Made by a program: the position numbers and the translations under genes. From assembly GCA_035626775.1 (NCBI GenBank), contig DASPNA010000078.1:42771-106770 (forward strand): a stretch of DNA of 64,000 bases. Direction: 5' to 3'. Numbering within the stretch: the stretch's first letter is position 1; every line of letters starts with the position of its first letter. This DNA comes from Thermoanaerobaculia bacterium. Lineage in GTDB: Bacteria; Acidobacteriota; Thermoanaerobaculia; Gp7-AA8. A model generated the notes under the pieces. It did no database searches, was not told where the DNA came from, and saw only the letters and a list, made by a program, of their open reading frames with translations. Positions 11,861 to 11,945 of this stretch are shown here, piece by piece.

Positions 11861-11945
11861 GGTTCCTCGGGTTCCTCGGTTCCTCGGAGGGGATTGGGCG
11901 GACGCCGAGGAACTCGGAGGGACTCCGAGGAACCCGAGGAACTCA
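11861..11945. repeat. Palindromic element family 1 (tandem GTTCCTCGG units / CCGAGGAAC units)
   Basis: ggttcctcgggttcctcggttcctcggagggga ... ccgaggaactcggagggactccgaggaacccgaggaactc. Other copies at 23124-23220, 59827-59850 and 60326-60423. Confidence 0.75.

Follow-up and report, generated by a model that had tools for sequence, protein, structure and literature searches.

At positions 11,861 to 11,945 of the 64,000-nt stretch of Thermoanaerobaculia DNA analyzed here (hereafter, the window), a palindrome built of short tandem units lies near a CreD-like gene, and three further copies are found elsewhere in the window. This raises the question of what kind of element it is and how it came to be there. 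We found that this palindrome family, referred to as family 1, is a lineage-restricted, high-copy, non-coding repeat of one group of soil Acidobacteria. Its insertion, the copying of whole elements, a fixed polarity, defined ends, and conserved unit cores with free linkers and centers were all observed. As to its nature, we give roughly even chances to family 1 being a non-autonomous mobile intergenic palindrome, akin either to repetitive extragenic palindromes (REPs) and their paired, hairpin-forming arrangement (REPINs) or to MITEs (miniature inverted-repeat transposable elements). The first-pass annotation of the window had recognized the four copies and overlooked or understated three points, namely, the variable linker of the unit, the status of the copies as lineage-specific insertions, and the existence of many further families built like family 1.

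The unit GTTCCTCGG occurs 22 times in the window compared to 0.77 occurrences expected, and none of 100 shuffles gave as high a count. Eighteen of the occurrences fall inside the four elements, while the remaining four are lone singletons in coding-like sequence. The four places contain what had been described, although the third is only a mini-hairpin with a single unit per arm. All four are intergenic, as had been claimed, with neighbors assigned by Pfam to CreD-like, IPT/TIG, LPG_synthase_TM, NrdR, and Lon. The copies and their parts, along with the box upstream of lon, are as follows:

11861..11945, no strand assigned: family-1 copy 1, overall extent
11862-11887: copy 1 left arm, three GTTCCTCGG units with linkers G and then none
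17 nt between the arms: copy 1 center, AGGGGATTGGGCGGACG
11905-11942: copy 1 right arm, CCGAGGAAC units, three exact and one degenerate
23130..23219, no strand assigned: family-1 copy 2, overall extent
23130-23164: copy 2 left arm, a degenerate GTCCCTCGG and three exact units
23191-23218: copy 2 right arm, three inverted units, after a center of 26 nt
59827..59850, no strand assigned: family-1 copy 3 (mini), 1+1 units, GTACCTCGG-AACT-CCGAGGAAC, with a 4-nt loop
60328..60419, no strand assigned: family-1 copy 4, overall extent
60328-60353: copy 4 left arm, three units, followed by a center of 29 nt
60383-60419: copy 4 right arm, two degenerate (CCGAGGGAC and CCGAGGTAC) and two exact inverted units
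59760-59800, minus strand: the lon-upstream box GGAACAGCCATTGCA

Copy 1 has on one side a hairpin of the canonical terminator-like kind (12002-11974, minus strand) and on the other the CreD-like gene, which probably starts with the ATG at 11799 on the minus strand. The first-pass annotation had attributed to it a spurious N-terminal extension of the CreD-like open reading frame (ORF), rich in proline, glutamate, and arginine, and this was confirmed. Copy 2 fills nearly all of the 101 nt that separate two convergent stop codons, that of the third IPT/TIG paralog (TGA, 23121-23123) and that of a minus-strand ORF (23225-23227), and it alone among the window copies is followed by a run of five T. 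That paralog is the last of three IPT/TIG-domain genes arranged in tandem at 20.1-23.1 kb with a 1010-nt period and 3′ ends that are 81-88% identical, and only the last has a family-1 element behind it. Copy 3 sits between the nrdR stop codon and the box GGAACAGCCATTGCA, a GG-N10-GC motif about 40-50 nt upstream of lon that is conserved in nearly all relatives and, by its sequence, looks like a sigma-54 (−24/−12) promoter. Copy 4 lies between the stop codon of the LPG_synthase_TM gene and another conserved box, GTGATATAC, which precedes the nrdR start codon by about 10-14 nt.

Copies 1, 2, and 4 are palindromes of 85-100 nt, while copy 3 is a 24-nt mini-hairpin. Copies 1 and 4 have an identical left-arm pattern followed by AGGGGA (95% identity over 37 nt) and the same 27 nt at their right ends; their centers differ. 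RNA folding, which had been proposed as a check, demonstrated that the three large copies are strongly stable on either strand (−55 to −82 kcal/mol, z = −5.0 to −8.4), whereas copy 3 folded by itself reached no significance (z = −1.3 to −1.9). An assembly artifact was excluded, as copies 3 and 4 are base-for-base identical in two independent assemblies (ENA and JGI). Separately, contig L001 matches the window with 99.96% identity over 11 kb and then falls abruptly to 79%. The break, at about 52900-52960 of the window and 14947-15109 of L001, marks a boundary of recombination or between strains, or else a chimeric join in the assembly.

The spread of the family was assessed in a collection of 185,579 species genomes using three consecutive units as a query. 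The scan found at least 108 stretches, and those listed came nearly all from about ten Thermoanaerobaculia/Acidobacteriota metagenome-assembled genomes (MAGs). This spread rules out a local duplication, which the first-pass annotation had named as the alternative to a dispersed family; the dispersed family is what was found. One Vicinamibacterales locus among the listed matches is a decayed copy. Those in Streptomyces and in one "Proteobacteria" MAG are one-armed arrays with a strict 9-nt period, as are all 23 of 23 matches on viral contigs, none of which has the palindromic architecture; a phage or plasmid origin was therefore rejected. From their sequence, these one-armed arrays look like in-frame coding repeats. 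Within the clade (NrdR at least 70% identical), array density was 1.5-2.0 per 10 kb, while the nrdR loci of more distant organisms, 143.6 kb in total, contained no array.

We then carried out a census of the listed matches, which yielded 71 complete elements; the scan demanded at least three units in one arm. The conserved core proved to be the 8-mer TTCCTCGG with a linker of 0-2 nt. Thus, the tandem units of the first-pass annotation stand, while its fixed 9-mer has to be replaced by a core with a variable linker. The linkers are AG (45%), G (25%), none (16%), or GG (10%), with the same distribution in both arms. All 71 elements have the same polarity, (TTCCTCGG)n - center - (CCGAGGAA)n. The reverse arrangement was essentially absent among about 140 unit clusters, the near-exceptions being L027 and one stray upstream unit in L044. 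Arms typically have three to five units, most often four: the 4+4 arrangement is the commonest (23 of 71), 3+3 was found in 8 of 71, unbalanced elements reach 12+5, and one-armed arrays reach 17 units. Centers range from 0 to 135 nt, with a median of about 20. The ends are also defined. In front of the first unit there is always [C/G][A/G]G (G at −1 in 100%, A or G at −2 in 99%, and C or G at −3 in 88%), and positions farther out are not conserved. The flank logo reads G-[C/G]-[A/G]-G followed by TTCCTCGG, without a GTAG/CGTC head.

To compare filled and empty sites, orthologous loci of relatives were gathered through NrdR homologs. The LPG_synthase-nrdR gap measures 13-20 nt in four relatives (L111, L113, L115, and L117) compared to 120 nt in the window. 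An insertion of roughly 32 nt that contains copy 3 is likewise missing from every relative with an alignable site, among them L111, L113, L115, and L117. In a further pair, L055 is filled with a family-1 element, while L081 is empty, with 86% flank identity. In the few homologous locus pairs of the sample, we found no case in which both members carry a family-1 element at the same position. Relatives have empty sites at the orthologous positions, so the copies are insertions specific to a lineage, placed into otherwise very short intergenic gaps. Insertion into existing hairpins was considered and rejected, as the flanks prolong the palindrome barely more than in controls (run of 2.80 versus 2.36); nonetheless, the window and L119 share the exact insertion point.

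A whole element, including its center, can also be copied to a new locus. Two elements of the same MAG with unrelated flanks, L009 and L072, align in both arms and centers, with 12 of 14 center bases identical and a center score of 0.71 compared to a null maximum of 0.24. Their unit numbers and linkers differ.

Comparison of the two arms suggested that they change independently of each other in family 1. Linker patterns are not mirrored (46 of 153 identical versus 44.6 expected; 25 of 70 versus 23.7 in balanced elements), and mirror symmetry of linkers was therefore rejected for this family. Some arms are uniform inside, yet a single fixed base sets them apart from the opposite arm, as in the following cases:

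L026: AGTCTCAAAG versus AGTCGCAAAG
L048 and L066: TTCCTCGG versus TACCTCGG
L115: ATAGGAC versus ATGGGAC

None of these fixed mismatches (U-U, U-C, and A-C) is a wobble pair, and this speaks against a strict selection for pairing of the RNA. The ATAGGACNN family combines a constant 7-mer with a 2-nt linker of varying sequence. In L115 (20130-20340) and L122, the unit variants of the two arms follow a largely mirrored order. The orthologous elements of L120 and L122, which are about 3% apart, have both kept 4+4 units and differ by 3 substitutions in 56 nt of arm sequence and a 7-nt center indel. Family-1 units are mostly exact 8-mers, yet the centers are almost all unrelated. This implies that the cores are constrained or continually renewed or that the centers change much faster than the arms. 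A directional growth with older, degenerate units on the inside was not supported (16% degenerate at outer versus 21% at inner borders). Centers also accept other repeats: six family-1 centers hold nested palindromic repeats (L010, L023, L060, L103, which has two, and L104). Two further palindromic repeat families, of about 100 nt (GTCATCCCGAGCGTAGCGAGGGACCTGGGCGG...) and about 200 nt (CTGTCATCCCGAGCCGCCGGAGCCCCGGGG...), are widespread in these MAGs and are repeatedly nested in family-1 centers. Their sites are the following:

L117: 1096-1293 and 12972-13073
L010: 2026-2116
L023: 3417-3518
L060, L103, and L104: centers of the family-1 elements

The same architecture recurs with other units. 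All tandem arrays of at least three copies of a 7-mer in the window lie within inverted-array elements, which belong either to family 1 or to the GAGTCTCA and AAATTGA families:

12535..12627, no strand assigned: GAGTCTCA-family element, (GAGTCTCA/GAGTCGCA) x4, center, (TGAGACTC) x3; immediately behind the DUF1028 gene's stop codon
29818..29916, no strand assigned: AAATTGA-family element, 4.4 units, 37-nt center, 4.4 inverted units; between two co-directional T2SSE ATPase genes
49329..49477, no strand assigned: GAGTCTCA-family element, 3.6 units, 78-nt center, 5.2 inverted units; between the divergent genes tsaD (minus strand) and valS (plus strand)

Outside the window, the AAATTGA family was found with the same polarity in L045 and L084, with a close variant in L119. 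The fetched loci also revealed ATAGGAC, TGAACGA, GAACGCA, CTCTGTG, GGCAGTA, GGCAGAA, GGCGGTT, AGGACTG, and others, so that these genomes hold at least ten other unit families of the same architecture. Each family has one fixed polarity, and 11, 18, and 3 arms consist of three, four, and five units, respectively. Because many unit families share one architecture, the real phenomenon is the architecture and not the family-1 sequence. The ATAGGAC elements provide the upstream gene with its stop codon (a TAG within the unit) and abut the next start codon. They replace a 9-nt intergenic spacer in an operon (L083 7520-7596 versus L009 3950-3975; L115 1996-2075).

The site upstream of nrdR, where copy 4 lies just 5′ of the conserved GTGATATAC box, differs in its occupant from lineage to lineage:

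window: family 1
L120 and L122: (GGCAGTA)4 palindrome
L124: (GGCAGAA)n palindrome
L139: GGCGGTT/AACCGCC palindrome
L121 and L123: one-armed (AACCGCC)4
L136: large GGTGGTC palindrome
L119: non-tandem palindrome, at the same nucleotide as the window insertion (GAGTGAG^CCGTGTGATATAC)
about 15 other lineages: empty

The occupied lineages are scattered over the nrdR tree. L120-L123 are 96.6-98% identical over 700 nt and carry two alleles that do not track flank similarity. The one-armed (AACCGCC)4 of L121 (2729-2760) and L123 (350-376) lies within the 3′ end of the called LPG_synthase ORF, which stops at the TGA of the GTGATATAC box and gives a product of 346 aa in L121 compared to 334 aa in L120. 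Arrays can thus remodel protein C termini.

Gene context was determined by a flanking-frame test, because crude gene calling based on GC content at third codon positions is too unreliable near the elements for counts of those "inside a gene." Of 44 classified elements, 29 lie between co-directional, 8 between convergent, and 7 between divergent genes. A run of at least four T within 14 nt follows only 3 of 71 elements. No terminator-like call was obtained on the window copies with a scan that accepts loops of 3-8 nt only. Thus, the termination that the first-pass annotation had suggested looking for does not hold as a general role: T-tails are rare, elements are also found in front of genes and in divergent promoter regions, and a separate terminator stands beside copy 1. 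A known RNA family was also rejected. Rfam gave no match at gathering threshold anywhere in the window, and below threshold only eukaryotic microRNA-precursor hairpins and one bacterial small RNA family, Dictyoglomi-1, appeared (14.8 bits versus a threshold of 150). Nor is this a CRISPR array, as the units are 8-10 nt long, contiguous, and inverted around one center rather than repeats of 23-47 nt interspaced by unique spacers.

Among described systems, the closest precedent is the inverted GGGAATC array pairs of Xanthomonas, and the architecture is fully common to both. In the only detailed account of the inverted-pair form, Rehm et al. (2015, PLoS One, PMC4692102) reported about 185 GGGAATC heptamer arrays per Xanthomonas campestris/axonopodis genome, mostly of four units, including 70-75 convergent inverted pairs per genome on opposite strands that are able to form stem-loops. 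These arrays are transcribed and mainly intergenic, mostly between co-directional genes, and 83% of them are positionally conserved between two species, while their length and sequence vary (PMC4692102). Unit-number variation of such arrays is documented at Xanthomonas loci used for multilocus variable-number tandem repeat analysis (MLVA). Family 1 shares with them tandem short units, four per array as the commonest number, inverted pairing, intergenic location, and many copies per genome. It differs in having 8-nt cores with 0-2-nt linkers that are not G-rich, in the coexistence of many unit families, in its phylum, Acidobacteriota, and in the poor conservation of its sites, as seen from empty orthologous sites and within-species alleles. 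Cyanobacterial short tandemly repeated repetitive (STRR)/GGGGA(C/T)T and Beggiatoaceae TAACTGA heptamers also form intergenic arrays at hundreds of sites with 2-6 or more copies of a 7-nt unit (PMC4679880, PMC4692102). They resemble family 1 in their short units, lineage specificity, and intergenic location. They are, however, essentially one-armed and oriented to the downstream gene, whereas the inverted pair is the rule in family 1: 1 of 170 sets is inverted in Beggiatoa (PMC4679880), and Nostoc has few paired cases (PMC4692102). Our literature searches turned up no later mechanistic work and nothing specific on the unit sequence, on Thermoanaerobaculia repeats, or on MITEs with reiterated ends.

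REP, REPIN, and BIME (bacterial interspersed mosaic element) sequences are mobilized by REP-associated tyrosine transposases (RAYTs), which belong to the Y1 class of HUH enzymes, and have secondary roles in mRNA stability and termination; a REPIN consists of two halves in inverted orientation that flank a short spacer of lower conservation. Family 1 resembles them in being high-copy, extragenic, lineage-specific, and hairpin-forming, in having several families per genome, and in lacking a target-site duplication. In contrast to the REP, its arms consist of tandem non-palindromic units of 8-10 nt rather than an imperfect palindrome of 20-40 nt, the GTAG/CGTC head is missing, and no RAYT gene was seen in the window and MAG fragments. 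With bacterial MITEs such as Correia, RUP, and Nezha, it has in common a non-coding sequence of 50-150 nt, inverted ends, intergenic location, insertion polymorphism between relatives, and whole-element copies at new loci. Unlike MITEs, it has short units repeated at its ends instead of one terminal inverted repeat, shows no detectable target-site duplication, and its interior is not conserved, except in L009/L072 and the local duplicate in L075. Together, family 1 lacks at least one defining feature each of REPs, MITEs, intrinsic terminators, and the quadruplex class.

How could a non-autonomous mobile palindrome give rise to these features? Unit number and linkers would change by replication slippage, and single arms would homogenize independently. 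The center, as the tip of a hairpin or cruciform, would diverge fast and accept nested insertions. A trans-acting activity that recognizes and propagates only copies with intact units may preserve the cores. Most DDE-type MITEs leave a target-site duplication as their footprint. As no footprint was detected, a trans-acting enzyme of the HUH/Y1 kind, which handles single strands or hairpins, fits better than a DDE transposase. A transcribed copy necessarily puts a stem-loop of −55 to −82 kcal/mol into the mRNA, and any effects on mRNA stability or operon polarity would then be a by-product and not the element's reason for existing.

Several observations weigh against such mobility. Direct flank similarity did not exceed the control (2.85 versus 2.99), although a duplication of 1-2 bp is still possible, and no duplication was seen in alignments of filled and empty sites. 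No transposase, Y1/RAYT, or reverse-transcriptase gene was found in the window and the MAG fragments of up to 20 kb, which cover a small fraction of the genomes. The longest arrays adjoin housekeeping genes, no insertion sequence related to family 1 was found among their neighbors, and the long centers consist of other nested palindromic repeats; an autonomous partner at either place was thus rejected. Related centers were limited to two pairs among 69 elements, one of which (L075) is a local segmental duplication. This is few for a recently active copy-and-paste family and implies that the lineages are old or that centers mutate very fast. With at least ten unit families, mobility would need many cognate recognition proteins unless its mechanism reads structure instead of sequence, and transposition with neutral slippage does not explain the preference for four units irrespective of unit length. 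Last, random insertion matches the varied occupants and two alleles at the nrdR site less well than recurrent local rewriting or a hotspot does. Roughly every fifth intergenic region is occupied, which makes it conceivable that a permissive site was hit repeatedly, but repeated hits leave the single-base relationships between units at this site and the return to four units unaccounted for.

The alternatives have to account for the same data. The elements might primarily serve the host as RNA or DNA structures, namely, as 3′-end stabilizers, as terminators that depend on a factor or do without a U-tract, as operon insulators, or as sites of supercoiling and cruciform extrusion, with mobility being secondary as in enterobacterial REP/BIME. 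The very stable folds on both strands, the strictly intergenic location with 37 of 44 classified elements in co-directional or convergent contexts (29 and 8), and the position of copy 2 between convergent stop codons with T5 behind it would all suit this explanation, as would the analogous Xanthomonas arrays, which are transcribed and 83% positionally conserved (PMC4692102). Yet orthologous sites of close relatives are empty or hold a different element, and elements also occupy divergent promoter regions (7 of 44, and likewise the GAGTCTCA element between tsaD and valS). The scarcity of T-tails (3 of 71), the lack of terminator-like calls on the copies (in a scan limited to loops of 3-8 nt), and the canonical terminator beside copy 1 speak against it as well. 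In addition, arm mismatches recur at the same position in every unit without G-U compatibility, and selection on a stem would not hold all units mutually identical. We thus consider a primary host function unlikely. A sequence-specific oligomeric protein is a further candidate, with one subunit bound per 7-10-bp unit and four sites reflecting its stoichiometry. By analogy only, the ribbon-helix-helix repressors omega and MetJ bind tandem heptads or 8-bp boxes. Such binding arrays would explain why cores are conserved while linkers are free (in sequence in the ATAGGACNN family and in length in family 1), why unit orientation is fixed, and why four units per arm are the commonest whether the unit is 7, 8, or 9-10 nt long, as is also the case in Xanthomonas. 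In contrast, at least ten coexisting unit sequences would require an equal number of proteins, and a mixed spacing of 8, 9, and 10 bp in one arm rotates the sites by about 35 degrees per bp, which is awkward for cooperative binding to a duplex. The sites are not conserved in position beside particular genes, and they turn over inside one species. This explanation appears to us quite improbable. Still less credit goes to the G-quadruplex simple-sequence repeat proposed for Xanthomonas/Nostoc GGGNATC arrays, to which Rehm et al. ascribed the four-unit preference (PMC4692102), four units supplying four G-tracts. Four units are the commonest number here too, and G or GG linkers give GGG-TTCCTC-GGG..., formally a G3-N6 motif. 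However, AG linkers (45%) and absent linkers (16%), together 61%, leave only GG tracts, and the four-unit sister families AAATTGA, ATAGGAC, TGAACGA, and GAGTCTCA have no G-tracts, so that the G-rich, quadruplex-capable unit characteristic of the Xanthomonas class is missing and the idea is extremely unlikely to apply.

Two remaining explanations place the origin of the arrays at the site itself. In the first, seed hairpins would grow in place by slippage and by fold-back or quasi-palindrome template switching, without any transfer between loci. The nrdR site supplies evidence for it, because its units lie one base apart (GGCGGTT in L139 and L121/L123, GGCAGTT/GGCAGTA in L120/L122, and GGCAGAA in L124) and both arms of the full palindromes carry the matching change. 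The largely mirrored unit-variant order in some families and the known unit-number variation at Xanthomonas MLVA loci point in the same direction. As the sole mechanism, local growth is contradicted by the fact that over 100 unrelated loci of about ten genomes share the identical 8-mer core in a single polarity, since generic fold-back should yield both polarities, as well as by empty orthologous sites that contain no seed and by L009/L072, where the whole element, center included, appeared at a second locus. We therefore regard it as very unlikely. The arrays might instead not be transposons at all but arise in place through a clade-specific writing activity whose set point is about four units. 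This could be a template-directed polymerase that adds repeats to the two 3′ ends of a break or extruded hairpin, or else a structure-driven replication process. In-place writing would cover constant cores with stuttering linkers, non-mirrored arms, and unrelated centers, as well as fixed polarity and outer phase, together with unit-like microhomology of 2-4 nt in the flank. It would also cover the many families with one architecture, different units at the same nucleotide in different lineages, and two alleles there within a single species. For all this breadth, we hold it to be a rather improbable explanation, and a non-autonomous mobile palindrome is the reading to which we give even chances.

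The window contains other repeats as well. The long non-coding stretch between the DUF1028 and CreD-like genes holds, between the GAGTCTCA palindrome and copy 1, a tandem repeat with an 80-nt unit. A palindrome family of the non-tandem kind, CTGGAGCGACGGGCTCTCAGCCCGTCG, has arms of 27-28 nt and a loop of 10-11 nt and is present in four window copies. A dispersed repeat, GACCCCTCATCCGCC...CCCCTCGCCGAGGGGAGAAGGCTACC, with an internal GGGGAG/CTCCCC hairpin, is present in three. Their positions are the following:

12054-12358: 80-nt unit, about 3.8 tandem copies with 75-77% matches, also scored as a 160-nt period
15733-15799, 28572-28637, 32939-33005, and 48522-48583: CTGGAGCGACGGGCTCTCAGCCCGTCG palindromes
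10461-10514, 27288-27341, and 57206-57259: GACCCCTCATCCGCC...CCCCTCGCCGAGGGGAGAAGGCTACC repeat

In practical terms, elements of this kind place strong hairpins in operons, break assemblies, and produce spurious ORF extensions in the annotation of MAGs. More broadly, tandem arrays of 7-10-nt units are strikingly over-represented in scattered bacterial lineages. As the same four-unit inverted architecture is found here with many units that are not G-rich, the quadruplex explanation is removed as a general one, and the shared architecture points to a generating or mobilizing mechanism that is independent of unit sequence. If in-place writing were true, it would also underlie the excess of 7-nt arrays in Xanthomonas, cyanobacteria, and Beggiatoaceae. 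The filled and empty orthologous sites, the two alleles in one species, the one donor-recipient pair, and the nested insertions provide handles on this mechanism.

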